From a virus (Duplodnaviria > Heunggongvirae > Uroviricota > Caudoviricetes), in the IMG/VR virus record IMGVR_UViG_2744054854_000009: a stretch of DNA of 30,480 bases. One strand, given 5' to 3'. Both the position numbers and the translations under genes were made by a program. Of this stretch, positions 736 through 26,930 are shown piece by piece (within the stretch, counting starts at the first letter, position 1; each line of letters starts with the position of its first letter). The notes beneath the pieces are model-generated. The model did not search any database, had not been told where the DNA came from, and saw nothing but the letters and a program-made list of their open reading frames with translations.

Positions 736-780
736 AATGGCCTCCCATGGCGGGAGTTGAACTCGCTCATATTATGGCCG

Positions 781-1935
781 CTATGATTCGGTTTCTGCAA
801 TCCATTCAGGTATTTTTGCTTCCAGTTCCAGCCGCGTTTTAAATCCACTGCTGTCAATAGTGTGGCTTGCCTTGGCAATTATCCAGTCCTGGCCGTCAAT
901 GACGTCTTTGAATTCCGTTACCGTTCCGTGCATCTCCGGATACAGATCCGCGCGCCCGTAAGCCAGGGTTAAAGTGAACTCAGCTGCTCCTCGCTGGAGT
1001 TGTTGCCATTTTGCAGCTGCTGCACGTTGTGCGGCCATCTCACTGCTGTACGTAGTGCGGAGTACAAAAACGTTACCATCTTCACCGGCAATATAGTCCC
1101 CTTCCCGGCTGCTGCTACGCGGCTTTTTGTCTGCGGTTTTCTTCCGTTTTTTAACAGTGACCTTTTTCTTTTTTCCGAAATCCATATCAAGCCAGTACGC
1201 CTGCACGCCAGTGTATGCGTCACGATCTGCAATCCGGAAAGAATGTCGATCTCCGCTGCTGCGCGTGATGGAAAACTCCGGTAACGCTCTGCCGTTTGCA
1301 CTGACGCCACCACCAGGCAGGATGAACAGCAGGTAACCATTTTTCACAGTTGCAATAGCGCCCAGCATTTCCGCCATGCGCGTCAGAAACGACATGTCAC
1401 TTTCTTGTGTCTGATCTGCATGGTCGATCTCGGCGGACATCAGTTGCTCTGAGATGAGAGGTTTTAACTTGTACCGGTGAGCTATAGCAGAGACGATGCG
1501 CTCAACTGTAACGTCATGCCACGACACCTCCCGTTTGACGTTAAACTCATCGCGGAAATCTGCACTTCTGGCCGTGATCTCGATACGGTCCGGCGGCCCT
1601 GAGTGCGCAATTTCATCCACGATGAAAATCCCTTTGTGAACCAGTTTTTCTCCCTGCCAGCCTATCGCTACTGACAATTCTGCACCACGCGGGGGTAACT
1701 CAATATCTCCCTGGCTATCATCAACAGTGATGGTCAGCTCATCAGCATTAAAGCCCCTGTTATCTGTTAATTCTAATGAGACCAGGTTCCCATCCAGCAT
1801 GATCAACGCCTTGCCGCCAAGCATGACGTTAAACGCAGGTACACGTGACAGGTCGCCCGGATAATTTTTGAATTTCTCAGCACCCGCATTCAGCAGGCTT
1901 TTTGCGCTCTCTATTGCGTCAGTTGTCAGTGCCAT
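781..1935 (-). CDS. D: tail protein D (late control gene D family)
   Basis: Long ORF with gpD-like sequence and internal Lys-rich stretch. Start chosen at ATG 1935 (MALTTD) with GAGGAG SD, giving 384 aa against about 387 aa for P2 gpD; track ORF extends to 2016. Confidence 0.85.
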   Translation of the reverse strand: MALTTDAIESAKSLLNAGAEKFKNYPGDLSRVPAFNVMLGGKALIMLDGNLVSLELTDNRGFNADELTITVDDSQGDIELPPRGAELSVAIGWQGEKLVHKGIFIVDEIAHSGPPDRIEITARSADFRDEFNVKREVSWHDVTVERIVSAIAHRYKLKPLISEQLMSAEIDHADQTQESDMSFLTRMAEMLGAIATVKNGYLLFILPGGGVSANGRALPEFSITRSSGDRHSFRIADRDAYTGVQAYWLDMDFGKKKKVTVKKRKKTADKKPRSSSREGDYIAGEDGNVFVLRTTYSSEMAAQRAAAAKWQQLQRGAAEFTLTLAYGRADLYPEMHGTVTEFKDVIDGQDWIIAKASHTIDSSGFKTRLELEAKIPEWIAETES

Positions 1936-1993
1936 CGCTTTCTCCTCACGCAAATATTTCCATGCGCGCGCGATAGGACAAACAGCCTTTTGT

Positions 1994-2011
1994 TGTCGCC
2001 TTTCTGTGACA
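1994..2011. promoter_or_regulatory. Ogr-type late promoter activator box (TGT-N12-ACA) between divergent D and FI
   Basis: tgt-cgcctttctgtg-aca read directly; centre about 55 nt upstream of plausible start sites for both FI (plus; GAATAT -10-like at 2046-2051) and D (minus; AAATAT-like around 1954-1959). Confidence 0.5.
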
Positions 2012-2086
2012 TCCATCGTGACGTGTCTGCCGCCCGGAATTCAGCGAATATCACCATGAACTCACTAAACATGATGGCGGTAGAGT

Positions 2087-3268
2087 ATGACCGACAACTT
2101 TTTCCACGGATCACGCACCAAAGAAAACACCGACCTTCTGGCCGCGATCAATGACATTGATTCAACGGTCATTGGTCTGGTCGCGGTGGCCGATGATGCC
2201 GATCCCCTCACCTTTCCACTTGATACACCAGTCCTGATCACTCGCGTGATTAGCGTGCTGGGTAAGGCAGGCAAGACAGGCTCACTGTATAAATCTCTCA
2301 AGGCTATTTCCGACCAGGTCAGCACGCGCGTCATTGTTGTTCGTGTCGCTGAGGCCAAAGAGGGTGAAGATGAAAAAACACAATCTCAGCTCATTATCGG
2401 TGGCACTCAGGCTGACGGAAGCTATACCGGTATGTTTGCCCTGCTGACCGCAGAGCAGAAAACGGGTTATCGCCCTCGAATCCTCGGCATTCCGATGTAT
2501 GACACGCAGGAAGTAACCGCACAGCTGCGCGTAATTGCGAAGCAACTGCGTGCGTTCTCTTACAGCTATTGTGATGGCTGCGAGACTATTGCCGAAGCGA
2601 AGACCTACCGCGAGCAGTTCGCCGAACGTGAAGGGATGTTAATTTGGCCTAACTTCATCGCCTACAACCCGCAGACCGGCGTTAATGAAGAATTCCCGGC
2701 TGTTGCCTATGCGCTTGGCCTGCGGGCACTGATTGATAATGAGCAGGGCTGGCACAAATCACTTTCTAACGTTGCGGTGAAAAACGTCCTGGGTATCTCT
2801 AAAGACGTGTTCTGGGCGTTACAGGCGGAGGACTCCGACGCTAATGAGCTGAACGCTAACGAGATTACCACGCTGATCAAACGCGATGGCTTCCGGTTCT
2901 GGGGTAACCGTACCACCGACACCGAAGAGTATATTTTCGAGGTGTTCACCCGGACGGCCCAAATTCTTGCGGACAGCATTGCGGAAGCACAATTCACCAC
3001 CGTGGATAAACCGCTTACCCCGGCTAACGTCAAAGACGTTGTAAGCGGGATCAATGCCAAGCTTCAGGCGCTGGTCACTGCTGGCAAGCTGATTGGTGCA
3101 GCGTGCTGGTTTGATATTGTCGACAACCCGACCACTGGTATTCGCCAGGGTAAAGTTGTTATTCGCTACAACTACAGTCCCGTACCACCGCTGGAAAACC
3201 TGACGCTGATCCAGACGTTTACCGATCAGTATTACGAACCAGCCTTTGCATCGCTGGGAGGTGCATAA
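2087..3268 (+). CDS. FI: contractile tail sheath protein
   Basis: 393 aa; strong collinear similarity to P2 gpFI as recalled (e.g. LIKRDGFRFWGNRT, PVPPLENLTLIQ). Confidence 0.95.
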   Translation: MTDNFFHGSRTKENTDLLAAINDIDSTVIGLVAVADDADPLTFPLDTPVLITRVISVLGKAGKTGSLYKSLKAISDQVSTRVIVVRVAEAKEGEDEKTQSQLIIGGTQADGSYTGMFALLTAEQKTGYRPRILGIPMYDTQEVTAQLRVIAKQLRAFSYSYCDGCETIAEAKTYREQFAEREGMLIWPNFIAYNPQTGVNEEFPAVAYALGLRALIDNEQGWHKSLSNVAVKNVLGISKDVFWALQAEDSDANELNANEITTLIKRDGFRFWGNRTTDTEEYIFEVFTRTAQILADSIAEAQFTTVDKPLTPANVKDVVSGINAKLQALVTAGKLIGAACWFDIVDNPTTGIRQGKVVIRYNYSPVPPLENLTLIQTFTDQYYEPAFASLGGA

Positions 3269-3784
3269 ATGGCTATTCCTAAGAAACTCCGCCTGTTCAC
3301 GATGTTTGTCGATGGCGACAACTACATCGGGAAAATACCCAGCGTCACGCTCCCGAAAATCACCCGTAAAACGGAAGATTACCAGGGTGGCGGTATGCTT
3401 GGCTCTGCTGCTGTTGATCTCGGCCTTGATTCAGGTGCACTGGATGCATCAATGATTGTTGGTGGCATGGTCGAGGAGCTGATCCTGAAATGGGGTGGGG
3501 ATATTGACGAACTACGCACGCGCTTTGTCGGTGAGATCTACAGCGGCGGTACAAGCTCCCTGCTTGAGGTCGAGATGCGCGGACGTATTACCGAAGTCGA
3601 CCAGGGCGAAGCCAAGCAAGGTGATGACACCAATCATACTTATGCGCTCAAAAATACGTATTACAAGCTGTCCGTGGATGACAAACCTCTGCTGGAAATC
3701 GACCTGCTGAACTTCATCTACAAGCGCAACGGTAAGAGCCTCTACCCGGATCGCATTGCGTCCGCTCTGGGCCTCGGCCAGTAA
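3269..3784 (+). CDS. FII: tail tube protein
   Basis: 171 aa; MAIPKKLRLFTMFVDG... resembles P2 gpFII; GGGAGG SD; start abuts FI stop. Confidence 0.95.
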   Translation: MAIPKKLRLFTMFVDGDNYIGKIPSVTLPKITRKTEDYQGGGMLGSAAVDLGLDSGALDASMIVGGMVEELILKWGGDIDELRTRFVGEIYSGGTSSLLEVEMRGRITEVDQGEAKQGDDTNHTYALKNTYYKLSVDDKPLLEIDLLNFIYKRNGKSLYPDRIASALGLGQ

Positions 3785-3805
3785 CCTTTTTTAACCACTA
3801 CAAAT

Positions 3806-3824
3806 GGCGGCCAGTCTGGCCGCC
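3806..3824 (+). other. perfect stem-loop between FII and E (possible attenuator or RNA processing element)
   Basis: GGCGGCCA-gtc-TGGCCGCC, 8-bp stem and 3-nt loop, no trailing U-run. Confidence 0.3.
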
Positions 3825-3837
3825 CGGAGAAAGAATA

Positions 3838-4137
3838 ATGTCAGTAACTCTCAGCCAACCCATTAAACGCGGCGATCAGGAAATCAAATCCGTCTCAATC
3901 ACCGACACAATCAAGCAGGCTGGCTCACTGCGCGGGCTGCGTCTGGTTGATGTTCTCAACTTCGATTATGACGCGGTATCAACTCTGCTGACTCGCGTAA
4001 CCACGCCCCAGCTGACAACTGCCGATATTTCCTCAATGGCGACCGGCGACTTTACGGCCCTGTGCGAAGAAATCACGCCTTTTTTGACGAAAGCGGCGCC
4101 GTCCGCACCGAGCGAGGCGGCAACGGCGAGCAAGTAA
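3838..4137 (+). CDS. E: tail assembly chaperone E
   Basis: 99 aa ORF directly after tail tube, GGAGAAAG SD; position and size as P2 gpE; contains slippery TTTTTTG near its 3' end. Confidence 0.85.
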   Translation: MSVTLSQPIKRGDQEIKSVSITDTIKQAGSLRGLRLVDVLNFDYDAVSTLLTRVTTPQLTTADISSMATGDFTALCEEITPFLTKAAPSAPSEAATASK

Positions 4138-4310
4138 GAGAGGCAGTATTCAGCGATGTCGACGATCTGATCGCCGATATCGCTGTGATATTTCACTGGC
4201 CGCCCTCCGAAATGCACAGCATGGAGTTGCGCGAGCTGATGGCCTGGCGCGAACGGGCGGCCATCAGAAGCGGCAACCATGATAAGGAGGATGACGACGA
4301 TGGATCTTAG
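3838..4310 (+). CDS. E': tail assembly chaperone E+E' made by programmed -1 ribosomal frameshift
   Basis: Slippery heptamer T-TTT-TTG at 4080-4086 in E frame; the -1 frame is open from there to TAG at 4308-4310 (track ORF 4062..4310), overlapping the T start; mirrors the P2 E/E' (lambda G/GT-like) arrangement. Confidence 0.75.
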
Positions 4311-7239
4311 TATTCGCGTTGCGTTCAGTGCAATTGACAAGCTCACCCGCCCGGTCAGCGCCGCCAGTAAAGCTATTGGCGGCCTTTCCGACTCCCTCAA
4401 AAAAACTCAGTCCTCCATCAAAGACCTGGAAAAAAGCGCAACATCATTTGATAAGTTACGCTCGCAAGCCAATGACACTGCGCAGAAGCTGAAAAGCACC
4501 CAGCGGGCATTTAACGGTCTAAACCAGAAGCAACGTGAAGGCGGCCAGCTTACTGAAGCCCAGACGGCACGGCTTGAGTCACTTCGCACCAGGCTTTCCC
4601 GGCTGACGGAAACCTACGGCAGGCAAACGACGCAGCTGCGCACAGCAGCGCAGGCTGTGCGCCAGCATGGCGTTAATCTCACCACCGGTAGCGGCGCCAT
4701 CCAGAGTGCCATCAGGCGTACGGAACAATACAACCAGGCACTTGAGCGCGAACGTCGTCAGCTGGCTGCTACCCAGAAAGCCCAGGCCAGATACGAACAG
4801 GCAAAAGAGACTGCGGGTAAACTTCGCGGTGCAGGCATGGGGATGATGCTTGGCACTGCTGCTGCGGGCTACGCTGGCGGATCATTCCTTGCGCCTGCGA
4901 TTGGTTTCGACGAGGAAATGTCACGCGTCCAGGCCTTAACCCGCCTTAATAAAGACTCTTCCCAGATGGGAGATCTGCGCGCGCAGGCTAAAAAACTCGG
5001 TGCAGAAACTGCATTCACCTCTCGCGATGCAGCCAGCGGGCAGGCGTTTCTTGCAATGGCTGGCTTTACTCCAGAGGCCATTCAGGCGGCATTGCCCGGC
5101 GTTCTGAATATGGCGCTGGCCGGTGGCATGGATCTTGGTGAAAGTGCCGATATCAGCTCCAACATTCTTTCGCAGTTCCGCCTTGATCCAAAGGAAATGG
5201 ATCGGGTCAGTGATGTTTTGACCGCAGCATTTACCCGTACTAACACCGATTTAATGAACATCGGTGAGGCGATGAAGTATGCAGGAACCGGGATGGCTGG
5301 TCTTGGCGTTGATGTTGAGCGCACAACCGCCATGATCGGTGTAATGGCCAACGTTGGCCTGCGGGGTAGTATTGCAGGTACTGGCCTACAAACCACCTTT
5401 TCACGTCTGGCCGCACCAACAGGCAAGGCTCAGGCAGCCCTGAAAGAATTGGGCGTTTCTGTTGCTGATGCCACCGGAAAAATGCGACCGGCCGAAGTGG
5501 TCTTGTCTGATATTTATAAATCTATCAAAAAGTACGGCGATACAGACCAGCTTTCATTCTTCAAAGATATCGCTGGCGAGGAGGCAGCAAAGTCATTTCA
5601 GGCGCTGGTTAGATCGGCTGGTAGCGGTGAGCTGCAAAAACTCCTTGCCGATTTGCGCGGCTCTCATGGTGAAGCGCAGAAGGCAGCGAAGGTCATGGCT
5701 GACAACCTCAGCGGTGATCTGAAAAACCTGGACAGCGCATGGGAGGGTTTCCGCATTCAGATTGAGGAGACTGCCGACGGCCCTCTGCGCTCTCTCACTC
5801 AGGGGCTTAGCGATATGATCACCGCCGCCAGTACCTGGGTAAAAGAAAACCCCCGACTGACACAAACAATCATTCTGGTTGTCGGTGGGACACTTGCACT
5901 GGTGGCGGCAATTGGCGCTGCATCACTGGCGATGGGTATTCTTATTGGCCCCCTCGCCAAACTTCAGCTCGGCTTTTCACTGCTGACCGGTGGTCGCGGG
6001 CTACTCGGCACCATTGCAGCTTTTCGCACTCTCGGCACTGTCGCGGGCCCGGCCATGGCAAGTGTCAGAGGATGGTCCGTCGTACTGTCAGGAATCGCCC
6101 CTAACCTGGGAAGAATTTCAGCTATTCTCCCTGCGGTTCGCTCTGGTCTGCTTACTGCATTCCTGTCTCCTGGCGCACTTGTGGGATCGCTGACTAAAAA
6201 CATTGGCATGCTGCTGCTTCGCCTCACTGGCTTACCAGCAATCTGGGGCATGATCACCGGTGCGATATCTGTTCTTGGTGGGGCTTTATCTTTTTTACTC
6301 AGTCCAATAGGCCTGATTGGTGCCGCGTTTGTATCTGCGGGATTGCTAATCTGGCGATACTGGGAACCCATTAAGACATTTTTCCTCGGTATGTTTACCG
6401 GAGTTATGCAGGCGATCTCCCCTCTCAGGGATGCCTTTGCCACCTTTTTCCCCATCTTTGACATGATCAGCAATGGGGTGAAATCCGTCTGGCAGTGGTT
6501 TACAAACCTTTTGTCGCCAATGCAGACCAGCAAAGAGACGCTTGATAAATGCGCGAGCGCTGGCGTGATCTTCGGTAACGTGCTCGGCGGTGCGATTAAT
6601 CTCGTCCTGACCCCAGCCAGGATGCTACTTGATACTCTGGGCTGGATACTTGAAAAACTTGGTGTACTACCTGATGAAGCAGAGAGGGCGCGCAAGAAAA
6701 TTGAGGATGCGCAACGCTCTGCCCTCCTTCAGGATAAGGTGGCTTTCCTTGCCGGTGATATGGCTAAAGTCGCCCCCAAAAAAGCAGAGTCGCCAGTTAC
6801 TACTGCTGCACCCGCTGCGGCCTCGCCGCTATCAGGAAATACCGGTACGCAACGACGCCTGCAAAGCATCGCAGACAATACAAAAGCAACCGCTGACAAC
6901 ACCAAGAAAGTCGGGCCGGGTGACATTATTTTCAAAAACCTGCCGCGCGCTCTGGCTTTACGTGGCGCATACCAGGAAGCGCGTGTTACACCGCAGTCAG
7001 TGCCGCGAGTGGCAACGCCCGCCGCTGGCGGCATTATTTCCGCGACAGCAGCCACTCAGGCACCGGTATCGGCCCCCGTTACCGCGCCCACCGGCAATGC
7101 TCCAGTGTTTAACATTACCTTTAACGATGTTGGTAAGCGCACGGATCAGGAGCTGGAAAGAATGGTACGCAATGTTGTGCGTGATGCGATGGCCAGTACC
7201 AACAGAAATAACCGTGGTTCTTTCCGCGACAGAGATTAG
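4300..7239 (+). CDS. T: tail tape measure protein
   Basis: About 979 aa with coiled-coil-like N-terminal part, hydrophobic/Gly-rich central segments and low-complexity C-terminus; follows E/E'. Start chosen at ATG 4300 (AAGGAGG SD 9 nt upstream); track start 4279. Confidence 0.9.
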   Translation: MDLSIRVAFSAIDKLTRPVSAASKAIGGLSDSLKKTQSSIKDLEKSATSFDKLRSQANDTAQKLKSTQRAFNGLNQKQREGGQLTEAQTARLESLRTRLSRLTETYGRQTTQLRTAAQAVRQHGVNLTTGSGAIQSAIRRTEQYNQALERERRQLAATQKAQARYEQAKETAGKLRGAGMGMMLGTAAAGYAGGSFLAPAIGFDEEMSRVQALTRLNKDSSQMGDLRAQAKKLGAETAFTSRDAASGQAFLAMAGFTPEAIQAALPGVLNMALAGGMDLGESADISSNILSQFRLDPKEMDRVSDVLTAAFTRTNTDLMNIGEAMKYAGTGMAGLGVDVERTTAMIGVMANVGLRGSIAGTGLQTTFSRLAAPTGKAQAALKELGVSVADATGKMRPAEVVLSDIYKSIKKYGDTDQLSFFKDIAGEEAAKSFQALVRSAGSGELQKLLADLRGSHGEAQKAAKVMADNLSGDLKNLDSAWEGFRIQIEETADGPLRSLTQGLSDMITAASTWVKENPRLTQTIILVVGGTLALVAAIGAASLAMGILIGPLAKLQLGFSLLTGGRGLLGTIAAFRTLGTVAGPAMASVRGWSVVLSGIAPNLGRISAILPAVRSGLLTAFLSPGALVGSLTKNIGMLLLRLTGLPAIWGMITGAISVLGGALSFLLSPIGLIGAAFVSAGLLIWRYWEPIKTFFLGMFTGVMQAISPLRDAFATFFPIFDMISNGVKSVWQWFTNLLSPMQTSKETLDKCASAGVIFGNVLGGAINLVLTPARMLLDTLGWILEKLGVLPDEAERARKKIEDAQRSALLQDKVAFLAGDMAKVAPKKAESPVTTAAPAAASPLSGNTGTQRRLQSIADNTKATADNTKKVGPGDIIFKNLPRALALRGAYQEARVTPQSVPRVATPAAGGIISATAATQAPVSAPVTAPTGNAPVFNITFNDVGKRTDQELERMVRNVVRDAMASTNRNNRGSFRDRD

Positions 7240-7248
7240 GTGACGATT

Positions 7249-7737
7249 ATGATGATGGTTTTTGGAATGTTCGTTTTTATGCTGCGCACCACGCCCTACC
7301 AGCAACTCCAGCACTCGCAGGAGTGGAGGCACGTTAAAAACGAGCGCGTTAACCAGTCAGCAGGCTGGCAGTACATCGGCACTGGTGATGACAACATAAC
7401 CCTTTCAGGTGTTCTTTACCCGGAGATCACGGGGGGAAACCTCTCGCTATCCGCCCTTGAAACTATCGGCTATGCGGGGCGCCCATGGCCGCTTATTGAG
7501 GGTACGGGACGTATTTATGGTATGTACGTTTTAACACGGCTGGAGCGAGGTAAATCCGAATTCGATCAATTTGGGAATCCCAAAAAAATTGAATTTACCC
7601 TCAGCCTGAGCCGTGTCGACGCGGATTACAGGGAGAAGCTGCAAAGCTCGACCGTCAGCGACGCCCTTGCCGGGTTAAAGACGAGTGCAAATAATGCGAT
7701 AAACCAGGTGAAAGACTCGCTCAACGGTCTGTTTTAG
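7249..7737 (+). CDS. U: tail protein U
   Basis: MMMVFGMFVF...LSGVLYPEITGG... matches P2 gpU as recalled (MMMVLGLFVF...); ATG 7249 with AGGTGA SD; track's GTG start at 7240 overlaps T stop. Confidence 0.9.
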   Translation: MMMVFGMFVFMLRTTPYQQLQHSQEWRHVKNERVNQSAGWQYIGTGDDNITLSGVLYPEITGGNLSLSALETIGYAGRPWPLIEGTGRIYGMYVLTRLERGKSEFDQFGNPKKIEFTLSLSRVDADYREKLQSSTVSDALAGLKTSANNAINQVKDSLNGLF

Positions 7738-7744
7738 CAGTGGC

Positions 7745-8313
7745 TTAAACCCCTTCATGTTCCCTTCTTCTTGAAGGGAACTTCTTGTAAAGCGTCGATA
7801 TTCCGACATCAAAAATAATAGCCACCTGCTGCCGTTTTTCCCCTGCGGCGATCAGCCTTCCCGCCTGTTCCCATTGCTGCTTTGTCAGTTTTGGCCGCCT
7901 CCCGCCTATTCTTCCTTCTGCGCGGGCAGCCGCCAAACCGGCGCGGGTACGCTCAACGATCAATTCTCTCTCCATTTCTGCCAGCGCCCCCATGACGTGA
8001 AAGAAAAAGCGCCCATGGGTGTTGAGGTATCAATGCTGTCTGTCAGGCTGCGGAAGTTAACACCGCGATTGCGTAGCTCTTCGATCATTGTCACCAGGTG
8101 GCGCATGCTCCGCCCAAGACGATCAAGCTTCCAGACAACCAGCGTATCACCCTCCGATAAGGTCCGTAATAAACGCTTAAGCCCCGGCCTTTCCGCTTTA
8201 GTGCCGCTTATTTTGTCTTCAAATATTTGTTCACATCCTGCGCTTACCAGCGCATTTCTTTGCAGCGCAGTGTTCTGGTCATTTGTTGACACCCTTACAT
8301 AGCCGATCAGCAT
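7745..8313 (-). pseudogene. Hin/Gin/Cin-family serine DNA invertase, reading frame broken by a 1-nt loss in a homopolymer
   Basis: N-terminal ORF (7960..8313) has the catalytic serine motif GYVRVSTNDQ; C-terminal ORF (7745..7993) has the HTH part MGALAEMERELIVERT...GRRPKLT. Frames meet at an A5 tract (8004-8008, T5 on coding strand); one more T would restore the conserved ...GAFFFHVMGALAEMEREL... read-through. Confidence 0.8.
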
Positions 8314-8351
8314 AAAAATCCCCTTTTATTTAGATGTCATAGTCCCTCGCA

Positions 8352-8624
8352 TTGTATCGAGCATCGTCATTTCTGGCTGTACTGCAGGTCTGGTACCGCA
8401 CCGTCAGAAGTAACCATGTCTTCCGGAAAACGTTGGTTTCAGAAGTCAATACCTACATCAATACCCATCAGTGGCCTGGCAAAGCTGCTATTGGTCGTCT
8501 GAAAGGCGAGGAACTGGCGCAATATAATTCGTGGCTGGATTATCTGGACGCACTGGAACTGGTCGATACTTCCTGTGCGCCAGATATTGAATGGCCTACG
8601 CCTCCGGCAGTTCAGGCCAGCTAA
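8352..8624 (+). pseudogene. 5'-truncated remnant of an alternative tail fibre assembly gene (tfa', convergent with G)
   Basis: No ATG in the ORF (track start is TTG); C-terminal half ...YNSWLDYLDALELVDTSCAPDIEWPTPP matches the conserved Tfa C-terminal motif (W..Y...VDTS.APDIEWP) also seen at the end of G; no alternative tail-fibre C-terminus lies between it and the invertase. Confidence 0.6.
8421..8446. other. candidate degenerate invertase crossover site (hix/gix-like)
   Basis: ttccggAAAACG-TT-GGTTTCagaagt: quasi-palindrome around a central TT, opposite orientation to the site at 9471-9496. Confidence 0.3.
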
Positions 8625-9021
8625 CATGGTTGGGGTCGGTTTTCACATCAACCAATTTCACAGTGTTCTTATATGTCAGCCACGCCGACAGATTTGTCCT
8701 GTTGGTGTCACTGATTTCTCCCAGCATTAATTCTGTACGCCAGTCGAGCATCATCGCATCAGCATGAGCCAACAGCCGCTGACGTTCATTCTCAGCAGTC
8801 GCAATCAACTCTTCCTTGGTCGGAGGTGGAATATCAACCCAACCAGGCATCCCATTCACTGACCCCAGCTTTTTACCGGAGGGAGCTGCACCACAAAATT
8901 GGAGGTGAAGCACATGGGTAATTTCAATCAAATCATCAGGCCAGTTTCCCGCACGCTCGTAGGCTTCTTTGCGGTCGTCATCATAGAAACCAACAGTTGA
9001 CGCACTAAATAAAATTTTCAT
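8596..9021 (-). CDS. G: tail fibre assembly protein
   Basis: ATG at 9021 (MKILFSASTVGFYDDD...) 2 nt after the H-frame stop; C-terminus ...VDVKTDPNHVSWPELPEA has the Tfa-type motif; track ORF extends to 9096. Confidence 0.85.
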   Translation of the reverse strand: MKILFSASTVGFYDDDRKEAYERAGNWPDDLIEITHVLHLQFCGAAPSGKKLGSVNGMPGWVDIPPPTKEELIATAENERQRLLAHADAMMLDWRTELMLGEISDTNRTNLSAWLTYKNTVKLVDVKTDPNHVSWPELPEA

Positions 9022-9022
9022 A

Positions 9023-9346
9023 TCAATACCCCAGTGCGAACCAGAATCCGCCACTATTTGAGTTAAAATCAGAATCTTGCGCGACATGAAAACCAAATCC
9101 AGTTCTTACCACTCCGATAGCTGAACAACCAAACCCCTTTGTTGGCCGTGCCGTAGCGTCCAGTGTACACATCACGGCAACAGTAGCTGTCGGGTGAGTT
9201 ATAGTAAATGTGACGTTTGTAGTTTGCCCTGCGTTGGTTGGGCCAACTTTACCCCACTGCAAAATCAGTCCACCTGGTAGATACTGATATCCGATCGCGT
9301 TTTTCAATATAGACGTTTGTAGTTTGCCCTGCGTTGGTTGGGCCAA
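9023..9346 (-). pseudogene. H: out-of-frame C-terminal portion of tail fibre gene H, separated from the main ORF by a 100-bp duplication
   Basis: ORF repeats ...LKNAIGYQYLPGGLILQWGKVGPTNAGQTTNV (encoded by the repeat) then continues TFTITHPTATVAV...GGFWFALGY to a stop abutting G; has no independent start signal. Confidence 0.6.
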
Positions 9347-9409
9347 CTTTACCCCACTGCAAAATCAGTCCACCTGGTAGATACTGATATCCGATCGCGT
9401 TTTTCAATA
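9212..9409. repeat. perfect tandem direct repeat, 2 x 98 bp with period 100 bp, inside tail fibre gene H
   Basis: 9212-9309 is identical to 9312-9409 (read directly); period is not a multiple of 3, so the H frame shifts and stops at 9249-9251. Confidence 0.9.
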
Positions 9410-10091
9410 CTCCAAACGAACCCATGTCGGGGATTTGGTTTGTACCCGCACCCACATCACACAGTGCTGCCGATTTAATTCCAAGGTTTTGGAGAACCTG
9501 ATTTACCAGCCCAGCATCAACCATTTCTTTTAATGCATTAGCTATCAGTGGGTATTGCTTGTGCGGATTTGCAGCAGCTACGTGCTTTTTCATCACATCA
9601 TCGGCGTATGCCTTAACTTCAATAACGGCATCATCAACATATTTACGGGTTGCCAGCACCACTGACGGATCGATTTTCAGCGTCACAGCCTCGGTGCTGC
9701 TGACGATCAGGATCACGCGAATAACCTGCACGCGCCCGCTACCTTCCTGCAACTGCGGTTTATAAGTCTCTGCACAGTTGGCAACCGCAATCATATCGCC
9801 GTCTTTATCAAACAGGCCAATCTCACGGATCCACCATCCGCCCGCGTCTTCCGGTATAACCTGTTCCGCAATGATCTGATTGGTGTTTACCGGGTCAACA
9901 GTCAGCATGTTCAGCTGCGCGCGGCGCAGCTCATGCACGAGGGCGGTTTGGGCCGGATTGGGTGTCGGCAGCGCGCCGTTACCATCACCGACGGCCATTT
10001 GGGTGATCTCAACCTGCGCACCCAATGCCGTGGCGTTTGCCAGTTTTGCCGCCCCGATATTGGTTAACAGGGCAAAATATTTAGTCGCCAC
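9249..10091 (-). CDS. H: tail fibre protein H, truncated form (280 aa) ending inside the duplicated segment
   Basis: N-terminal region ATKYFALLTNIGAAKLANATALG...MAVGDGNGALP...YKPQLQEGSGR resembles P2 gpH N-terminus; GTG start at 10091 with GGAGA SD (track start is TTG at 10112); premature stop caused by the 100-bp duplication. Confidence 0.8.
   Translation of the reverse strand: MATKYFALLTNIGAAKLANATALGAQVEITQMAVGDGNGALPTPNPAQTALVHELRRAQLNMLTVDPVNTNQIIAEQVIPEDAGGWWIREIGLFDKDGDMIAVANCAETYKPQLQEGSGRVQVIRVILIVSSTEAVTLKIDPSVVLATRKYVDDAVIEVKAYADDVMKKHVAAANPHKQYPLIANALKEMVDAGLVNQVLQNLGIKSAALCDVGAGTNQIPDMGSFGVLKNAIGYQYLPGGLILQWGKVGPTNAGQTTNVYIEKRDRISVSTRWTDFAVG
9471..9496. other. candidate invertase crossover site (gix/hix-like) inside H
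   Basis: Coding-strand sequence TTCTCCAAAACC-TT-GGAATTAAATCG; left half matches the recalled conserved Hin/Gin half-site TTATCCAAAACC at 11 of 12 positions; encodes H residues VLQNLGIK just upstream of the C-terminal region. Confidence 0.4.
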
Positions 10092-10695
10092 TTGCGATCT
10101 CCACGGTATCAATTAAATGGACTGCCGCGCCGGTGTAGTCGCCACCGCCCACGGATATGGTTTCAGGAAAATAGGGGTAAACGGTCAACGTATCGCCGAT
10201 ATAACACCCCGCTCCGGCTTCGATATACCCCTGCGTCTGAAGCGAAAGCGAAAGGCCGGTAAGGTGGCGGCTTCTGGGTTTCGCGTCATCAATCAGGCGT
10301 TCAAGCTCCTGATATGTTTCCTCGGTTATCCCTTCGTCCTGAATGCCAATTTCAAGCTTGAAAGTGCCGGGCTCCTCGCCGCTCTGCCACCACTCAATCA
10401 CCCTCAGCAAATAGCCGAAAGGTTCAACAACGCGCCTCAACGCCGAAATCGTGCCTTTGTGGCGATGGACAAGCCACGAGGCTTTAATTACCTGCCTTTT
10501 GGTCTGTTCAGACCAGCGCTTATCCCAGCGATCAACAGACAACGCCCAGGCCAGATAGGGTAAAAACTCCACGGGGCATTCATCCGGATCCCAGAGCTTT
10601 CGAAGGTCGACAGGAATACCGCTGATCCGCGCCGTCGGTTTCTCCGCATTCCGCATGAAATTGCTGGCTGAAGGCGGCAGGAGGTTGTTATTCAT
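10081..10695 (-). CDS. I: baseplate assembly protein I
   Basis: 204 aa; MNNNLLPP...LPYLAWALSVDRWD...HRHKGT matches P2 gpI as recalled. Confidence 0.9.
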   Translation of the reverse strand: MNNNLLPPSASNFMRNAEKPTARISGIPVDLRKLWDPDECPVEFLPYLAWALSVDRWDKRWSEQTKRQVIKASWLVHRHKGTISALRRVVEPFGYLLRVIEWWQSGEEPGTFKLEIGIQDEGITEETYQELERLIDDAKPRSRHLTGLSLSLQTQGYIEAGAGCYIGDTLTVYPYFPETISVGGGDYTGAAVHLIDTVEIASGD

Positions 10696-12520: not shown

Positions 12521-13161
12521 CAGCTCACCCCCAGAGAATCAATGACCTGTCTGGCGATAGCCATGCGGTCCGCTTTGCTCAGGCCGAGCAACTCACGGCG
12601 CGGATAACTCGCCATCGCTCCGCTGTCGTTAACCCTGTCCCGTAACCCGTACTGGTGAACACGGGCGATGCGGGCAGCTGCACCAGAGAAACCAACTACA
12701 GCCCCCTCAGAAGTCGCTCTTGCTTTCAGAAAACGGGTTGTGCGCAGTCGGCGAAACATAGGATCACTTTTTGTGGTATCGCGGCGCGTCTCGCTGAAAC
12801 TGATATCAAGATAACGCTCAATATCAGAGCGATAGAACGAGCGAACAGCCCCCTTACCCTCATCAAAGCCTGTCAGCATGCGTCCCCGGCTTCCACGGCT
12901 TGCCCGCCAGTTTCGCAGGCGACGCTCCTCACCCTGCCAGATAAACCCGATCCCAGCCTGGGAGCGTAAGACACGGCGGCGACGCTTCGGGTATTTTGTG
13001 CCATCCGGAGCTGTCTGTTTTCCGATGCGCTGGCTCTGGCTACGGCGTAATGTAGTCGCTATTCCGCGCGCTGTACGCAACCGGCCCGCTGGCGCCATTG
13101 CGGAAAGGATGTCTGCAAAAACCTGATCGAGCTGATGAAACAGCGCTGCATCACCGGTCAT
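12520..13161 (-). CDS. S: tail completion / virion morphogenesis protein S
   Basis: Start chosen at ATG 13161 (MTGDAALF..., GGAGGAG SD), overlapping R stop by 4 nt; Arg-rich gpS-like protein; track start 13194. Confidence 0.85.
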   Translation of the reverse strand: MTGDAALFHQLDQVFADILSAMAPAGRLRTARGIATTLRRSQSQRIGKQTAPDGTKYPKRRRRVLRSQAGIGFIWQGEERRLRNWRASRGSRGRMLTGFDEGKGAVRSFYRSDIERYLDISFSETRRDTTKSDPMFRRLRTTRFLKARATSEGAVVGFSGAAARIARVHQYGLRDRVNDSGAMASYPRRELLGLSKADRMAIARQVIDSLGVS

Positions 13162-18654: not shown

Positions 18655-18672
18655 TGTGAGCGGAGCACTACA
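18655..18672. promoter_or_regulatory. Ogr-type activator box (TGT-N12-ACA) in the divergent O/P promoter region
   Basis: tgt-gagcggagcact-aca read directly; roughly central in the 160-bp O-P intergenic region; GGGGGA-cgca-TCCCCC hairpin lies at 18623-18638. Confidence 0.45.
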
Positions 18673-18738
18673 ACCTAAAGCGAGCGCAAGGGTACGCGCG
18701 CGCGGGTTAATCTCCCCGGCAGGAAGCGAGGAGGATTA

Positions 18739-26706: not shown

Positions 26707-26930
26707 TTGCGAAACTCCTGGTTGTAGGTTTCATGGGTCATGAGTCGCCACTGAGCGCCGCCGTTTTTGCTAAGCAAGCGCCAGCGACGGCCAATGCGGA
26801 TCACGAGATAGGCGTGCGGTTTGACGCGGGAGAAGTTGTGCTGACCACGTGAAAAACATTTCAGGGCGGCAATCGCCCTGGTGCATACAGGCAATGGCGC
26901 GCTGCAAACGATTGAAAGACGCGGATGCAT
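26703..26930 (-). CDS. hypothetical protein (75 aa)
   Basis: Start chosen at ATG 26930 with GAGGG SD (track start is GTG at 26942); stop overlaps dam start (ATGA). Confidence 0.45.
   Translation of the reverse strand: MHPRLSIVCSAPLPVCTRAIAALKCFSRGQHNFSRVKPHAYLVIRIGRRWRLLSKNGGAQWRLMTHETYNQEFRK

Follow-up and report, generated by a model that had tools for sequence, protein, structure and literature searches.

The window analyzed here, meaning the whole stretch of 30,480 nucleotides, comprises a complete P2-like (Peduoviridae) prophage, the genes of which have been identified from Pfam matches and the table of open reading frames. The tail/baseplate hub gene D and an ogr homolog are read leftward, and the tail operon FI-FII-E-T-U, beginning with the sheath (FI) and tube (FII) genes, is read rightward, so that the 151-bp gap between the divergent D and FI genes (1936-2086) precedes genes for virion structure, that is, late genes. 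Compared with the P2 reference record, the FI-U block is inverted and D and ogr have retained the P2 orientation, with D now facing FI; the module inversion assumed in an earlier note on this DNA is borne out by that record. The Ogr homolog shares 49% identity with its P2 counterpart, and its gene adjoins D in nearly all relatives. The D start at 1935 is supported by a conserved ATG and ribosome-binding site. The longest open reading frame assigned to D (781-2016, minus strand, 411 aa) carries an extension which is not conserved as a reading frame in relatives and is therefore probably a mis-annotation. A search for Rfam families gave no match across the whole window.

Table 1 Genes and predicted regulatory features of the prophage (positions in the window)
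Feature	Coordinates	Strand	Basis or remark
Rho-independent terminator CCCCGC-ATTT-GCGGGG-TTTT after ogr	461-484	minus	Read from sequence
ogr homolog (Ogr/Delta zinc-finger protein, 82 aa)	487-735	minus	Pfam Ogr_Delta PF04606, E = 1.9e-18
D (tail/baseplate hub, 384 aa)	781-1935	minus	Pfam Phage_GPD
GAGGAG ribosome-binding site of D	1947-1942	minus	D ATG at 1935
Predicted D transcription start, G1947	1947	minus	Box at -55.5; predicted from -10 position and P2 start rule
Putative PD extended -10 (TG, G, AAATAT)	TG 1962-1961; AAATAT 1959-1954	minus	Last T 48.5 nt from box center
Alternating GCGCGCGCG run	1964-1972		Directly upstream of the PD -10; conserved
Predicted Ogr-type activator box TGT-N12-ACA, TGTCGCCTTTCTGTGACA	1994-2011		Center 2002.5
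CGTG, weak -35-like element in the PF -35 region	2022-2025	plus	Conserved gCgTG block; putative function
PF -10 hexamer GAATAT	2046-2051	plus	Last T 48.5 nt from box center
Predicted FI-operon start, G2058, in conserved GAACTCA block	2058-2064	plus	Box at -55.5
FI, FII, E, T, U tail operon	2087-7737	plus	Pfam and ORF table
DNA invertase, split	7745-8313	minus	Pfam
Tail fibre, baseplate, lysis and head genes up to O	O start 18578	minus	Pfam
Sister box GTTGT-N12-ACAAC	18655-18672		O/P gap; -10-like hexamers 49.5 nt from center on both sides
P and Q	from 18739	plus	Pfam
Replication gene A, Dam-type methylase, cox, repressor-like gene, integrase			Pfam

The earlier note had taken the single TGT-N12-ACA element of the D/FI gap for an Ogr-type box that drives promoters in both directions and so keeps D under late control. 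All the elements it named (the box, the GAATAT and AAATAT hexamers, the GAGGAG sequence and both ATG codons, that of FI being at 2087) are found where it had placed them, and a motif scan confirmed that the box is the only exact match in the 151 bp. The hexamers are weak and come with no good -35, and a scan of positions 400-2400 with the sigma-70 consensus calls no promoter in the gap.

A precedent for such an arrangement is provided by P2 itself, as judged from the annotation of the P2 reference record and its sequence. In the record just one feature, "activator binding site; pO, pP promoters" (3057-3087), lies between the annotated starts of the P operon (3016) and the O operon (3127), which are 111 bp apart. 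The box within this site reads TGT-N12-CCA (3063-3080, center 3071.5). Measured from the box center, the last base of the -10 hexamer is 48.5 nt away for PO (GAAACT) as well as for PP (TAGCCT), and each start is the seventh base after its hexamer, 55.5 nt from the center; P2 late promoters are known to depend on a dyad near -55. When the P2 start rule is applied to the D/FI gap, starts are predicted at G1947 on the minus strand and G2058 on the plus strand, also 111 bp apart. The distance of about 55 nt proposed earlier between the box and plausible starts on both strands thereby becomes 55.5 nt on either side.

The D/FI gap and the P2 PP/PO region thus share one partly palindromic TGT-N12-(A/C)CA box between back-to-back late operons, with the -10 hexamers ending 48.5 nt and the starts lying 55.5 nt from its center, the starts being annotated in P2 and predicted in the D/FI gap. 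In both cases the side from which the box appears as (degenerate arm)-N12-ACAAC has a G+C-rich run before its -10, and P2 PP, like the D side, reads the box through an imperfect distal arm (TGG-N12-ACA). The P2 PP counterpart of the run is CGCGGGGCGCG, at about 3026-3036 of P2; a run like that at 1964-1972 of the window occurs at the same offset in the P promoter halves of the window (18693-18704) and of phage 3LV2017. The two regions differ in the genes served, which are D-ogr and FI-U here and terminase/portal and scaffold/capsid genes in P2, and in the conserved TG of the extended -10, found on the D side but not in PP.

The rightward half of the gap is the counterpart of the P2 promoter PF. 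In both, the TGT arm is distal, FI comes first in the operon and the start, predicted in the case of the window, is the seventh base beyond the -10; the hexamers are GAAAAT in P2 and GAATAT in the window, both about 48.5-49.5 nt from the box center. P2 PF, however, is one-directional and its operon (FI-FII-E-T-U-D) closes with D, whereas here FI-U is inverted, D has been left out of the operon and a -10 has been acquired on the far side of the box. The far side of P2 PF has no -10-like hexamer at the corresponding place (CCTGCC), which serves as a negative control with n = 1.

The occurrence of the bare motif is unremarkable. The window contains four exact copies of TGT-N12-ACA, compared with 6.13 +/- 2.35 in shuffled sequences (87 of 100 shuffles had at least four); two lie in coding regions, those of FII and the capsid gene, and the other two are in the D/FI and O/P gaps. 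TTGT-N12-ACAA with one mismatch is not enriched either (12 copies, 11.6 expected). The stricter GTTGT-N12-ANA is found seven times against 2.9, and only the matches in the D/FI and O/P gaps stand between late genes. Another match to this pattern, at 26835-26854 (plus strand), is non-coding and belongs to the early region, between the methylase gene (end 26706) and the next open reading frame on the minus strand (26939). Since the bare motif is present at chance frequency, motif counting cannot carry the case, and the significance of the box, as far as it can be read from the sequences, comes from its conservation and geometry over 41 related gaps.

These gaps were collected by a scan with the D protein, taking one genome per species, which yielded 39 loci with FI divergent from D in more than 25 species of Enterobacterales. 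The closest relative is that of Yokenella regensburgei ATCC 49455 (98% identity in D), and the same layout is present in the Serratia phage KSP20, the Klebsiella phage 3LV2017 (Reginaelenavirus), the Enterobacter phage phiT5282H (Novemvirus) and the Salmonella phages SEN4 and SEN5 (Senquatrovirus); more distant relatives from Burkholderia keep the P2 order U-D. The length of the D/FI gap is held at about 147-157 bp. The alignment consisted of 40 distinct gaps, and the gap-free comparison anchored on the box included 41 (SEN5 added).

The conserved core of the box extends to 1988-2013 (tTTGTTGTc ... A.A.C). Its left arm TTGTTGT is at least 90% invariant in the 40 unique gaps, and tTTGTTGTc (1988-1997) is the strongest block of all. 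The N12 spacer is free to vary. On the right, A2009, A2011 and C2013 are kept; about half of the relatives have ACA here and the others AGA or AGG, so the distal half-site, as read towards D, is often imperfect. No second box for D, nor any other dyad-like conserved block, was found in the 40 aligned gaps. Further conserved blocks on the FI side are GAwTAT and cGAACT-CA (the latter at least 90% conserved), and on the D side CA(T/C)GCGCGCGCG together with the hexamer region.

A hexamer of the form nAnnnT ending 48.5 nt from the box center is present on both strands in 39 of the 41 gaps, a count which, like others of this kind, overstates the number of independent observations because the relatives share ancestry. 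The distance from the box to the hexamer is fixed in 39 of 41 on each side, and the distance from the box to the ATG varies (67.5-71.5 nt for D and 78.5-88.5 nt for FI), which means that both leaders tolerate indels and the stretches from the box to the two -10 hexamers do not. That the two sides are equally rigid is the strongest argument from computation for a coupling of both putative promoters to the box.

The composition of the hexamers points the same way. The -11A and -7T of the FI-side hexamer are kept in 39 of 41 relatives. On the D side the box-anchored gaps have T in 38 and G in 39 of 41 at -15/-14, A at -11 in all 41 and T at -7 in 39, and the inner bases vary between lineages, giving at least ten variants, among them AAATAT, AACCAT, AACTAT, GATCCT, AATCAT, GATCGT, GACCAT and AATTAT. 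Retention of TG, -11A and -7T amid such variation is, on the aligned bases, the pattern of a working extended -10 and not of simple shared ancestry. A point against PD is the predicted D leader of only 12 nt, which would place the ribosome-binding site at the very 5' end of the transcript.

Taken together, the conserved box, the two -10 hexamers and the fixed spacing support the idea of a shared two-way site keeping D under late control, and we put the probability that the D/FI gap holds back-to-back P2-type late promoters, PD and PF, sharing one Ogr site at roughly three in four. The transcription starts, the binding of Ogr and the dependence of both promoters on it are what we infer from these sequence data.

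The main rival explanation keeps the box for PF only and has D and ogr expressed independently of Ogr, from an extended -10 promoter (TGn-AAATAT) lying opposite by chance. Promoters of the extended -10 type can function without a -35 element or an activator, and the TG at -15/-14, conserved in 38-39 of 41 gaps on the D side only and not present in the P2 late promoters examined, is what such a promoter would have; the TG could also make PD partly activator-independent. An independent promoter, however, would have no need of a box-to-hexamer distance as rigid as that of the FI side (39 of 41), several of its hexamers are poor (AACCAT, GATCCT, GACCAT), and P2 PP/PO is a direct precedent for the two-way use of one site. 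Moreover, there is no terminator between D and ogr, so that an unregulated PD would make the late activator in lysogens. We regard this explanation as unlikely.

A second alternative, to which we attach very little weight, is that the conserved box is bound by some other regulator, a host or a phage protein, and resembles an Ogr site only incidentally. The chance frequency of the exact consensus in the window would agree with this, as would the further conserved blocks in the same gap, (CG)n and CGTG. It is contradicted by the recurrence of the GTTGT-N12-ACA(AC) box in the O/P gap, the place at which the activator site is annotated in P2, by the Ogr homolog which the phage encodes, at 49% identity to that of P2, and by the distance to both -10 hexamers, which equals that in P2 promoters with annotated starts. 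The weakest proposal, that the gap lacks a promoter for D and the gene is transcribed by minus-strand read-through or from within FI, the hexamer being a by-product of conservation, is hardly credible, given that the nearest upstream genes on the minus strand lie beyond 7745 and read-through would involve 5.6 kb of antisense transcription through FI-U, that the consensus scan found no sigma-70-like site on the minus strand in 1936-2400, that a terminator-like hairpin on that strand (2144-2131) precedes the gap, and that the selection on TG, -11A and -7T fits a working -10.

According to the shared-site model, Ogr (encoded at 487-735) would bind the partly palindromic box centered at 2002.5 and, from about -55.5, would recruit RNA polymerase in both directions. 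The activator of P2 acts via the C-terminal domain of the alpha subunit of polymerase. Rightward, transcription from PF would start near G2058, proceed through FI-FII-E-T-U and probably end at a hairpin at 7759-7781. Leftward, transcription from PD would start near G1947, cover D, cross the 45-nt gap to ogr and end at the terminator at 461-484, which has an equivalent after ogr in P2. Read-through from PD into ogr would constitute positive feedback, and in P2 the read-through from PF into ogr likewise feeds back positively. An analogy can be drawn with the bacterial CRP-dependent divergent promoter pairs that are served by one symmetric activator site, in that polymerase on either flank is contacted from a symmetric site lying upstream in a class I-like position; the CRP activator family is unrelated to Ogr, and the comparison is meant as an analogy without any claim of membership.

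As to its origin, PD most likely arose through the inversion of the PF-FI...U block in an ancestor. This event would have brought the far side of the symmetric PF box directly upstream of D, and a -10 would then have evolved at the mirror-image distance on the D side. The more inclusive proposition, that PD was born by inversion with a TG-extended -10 evolving afterwards, that the whole late programme of the clade (P-Q, O to the tail fibres, FI-U and D-ogr) depends on two two-way boxes and that ogr receives direct feedback, we hold to be slightly more probable than its negation.

The second of these boxes is the sister box in the O/P gap of the window, which phage 3LV2017 keeps with a different spacer. 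The similar single box in this gap and the presence of the same design in P2 PP/PO both go beyond the earlier note. The possibility that the D/FI gap is a duplicate of the O/P gap was considered and rejected, as local alignments gave short matches only. The D and P halves match in the (CG)n run (a score attained by 14 of 500 shuffles), the FI and O halves in the GAACTCA block, and the cross pairs between the D/FI and O/P halves gave no local-alignment match; the pattern suggests shared constraints and is too weak for a claim of homology. The heptamer GAACTCA, which belongs to a local match of 22 nt (a score attained by 11 of 500 shuffles), is located exactly at the predicted starts of both the FI (2058-2064) and the O (18604-18598, minus strand) transcripts. 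A promoter of the PV type was also looked for; S and V abut, which leaves no gap for it, and the motif match at 12737, inside S, is taken as chance. The late genes of the clade seem, from these arrangements, to be run from two two-way boxes.

Comparable sites have been predicted in other P2-like phages. A single 18-bp TGT-N12-ACA element of the Stenotrophomonas phage Smp131 has been assigned to both PP' and PO' (PMC3931495), and the late-promoter motif of the Ralstonia phages phiRSY1 and phiRSA1 is TGTTGT-N13-ACAACA (PMC5694545). The latter shares the TTGT/ACAA arms and, as in the D/FI gap, represents an Ogr-type dyad upstream of late operons. These cases concern P/O or one-directional promoters and do not include a D/FI pair, and they differ in spacer length and hosts. 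A literature search turned up neither an account of promoters paired between D and FI in KSP20, 3LV2017 or their relatives nor transcript or mutational data for the group. The annotation of P2 PP/PO already embodies the principle of one site for two promoters, which makes the advance incremental, and the PD/PF pair would be a further case of the P2 PP/PO design, in P2-like phages that form a widespread group with a rearranged gene order. It would explain how the essential tail gene D has kept its late control after a large inversion had split it from its operon, and would offer a clean case from nature in which a symmetric activator site is put to a second use, facing the other way.

The locus is also of practical relevance for annotation, because gene calls that pick the longest reading frame for D, or start FI at an upstream ATG, take in the promoter region in this group, which includes Reginaelenavirus, Novemvirus, Senquatrovirus, KSP20 and many prophages of Enterobacterales. 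The calls for the deposited gpD-like coding sequence of KSP20 (838-2268), the FI start of phiT5282H (3121) and a small "hypothetical protein" of SEN5 (2823-2975) all extend through it, in each case as judged from the promoter alignment only.

The ogr gene probably also keeps its own promoter, as in P2, besides the read-through from D. A sigma-70-like sequence TTGCAG-N18-CATAAT overlaps the D stop codon (736-800, minus strand), and it is this site at the end of D that suggests such a promoter; relatives with a shorter D-ogr gap have CTGACT-N17-TAGAAT instead. The ogr leader (738-770, minus strand) contains a highly conserved GAGTTCAACTCCC...GGGAGG and can form a short hairpin which pairs the ribosome-binding site (-9.6 kcal/mol for the fold in the window), its 3-bp core being kept in 29-31 of 31 variants. 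Judging from the predicted fold, the hairpin may damp the translation of Ogr.

At the other end of the inverted block, the stop codons of the FI-U operon and of the convergent invertase gene are 7 bp apart, and the terminator-like hairpin at 7759-7781 (plus strand) is inside the 3' coding end of the invertase gene. A search of 7700-10300 for inverted repeats of at least 16 bp that could connect the FI-U inversion with the neighboring invertase gave none. The invertase, of the Hin/Gin type, is encoded by two overlapping open reading frames (7960-8313 and 7745-7993, minus strand), a split which indicates a frameshift or a sequencing error. Beside it there is a fragment of a tail-fibre assembly gene on the opposite strand (8352-8624, plus), and a tail-fibre gene nearby is broken in two (9023-10112, minus strand); the invertase and the fibre fragments look like a decayed invertible host-range segment.
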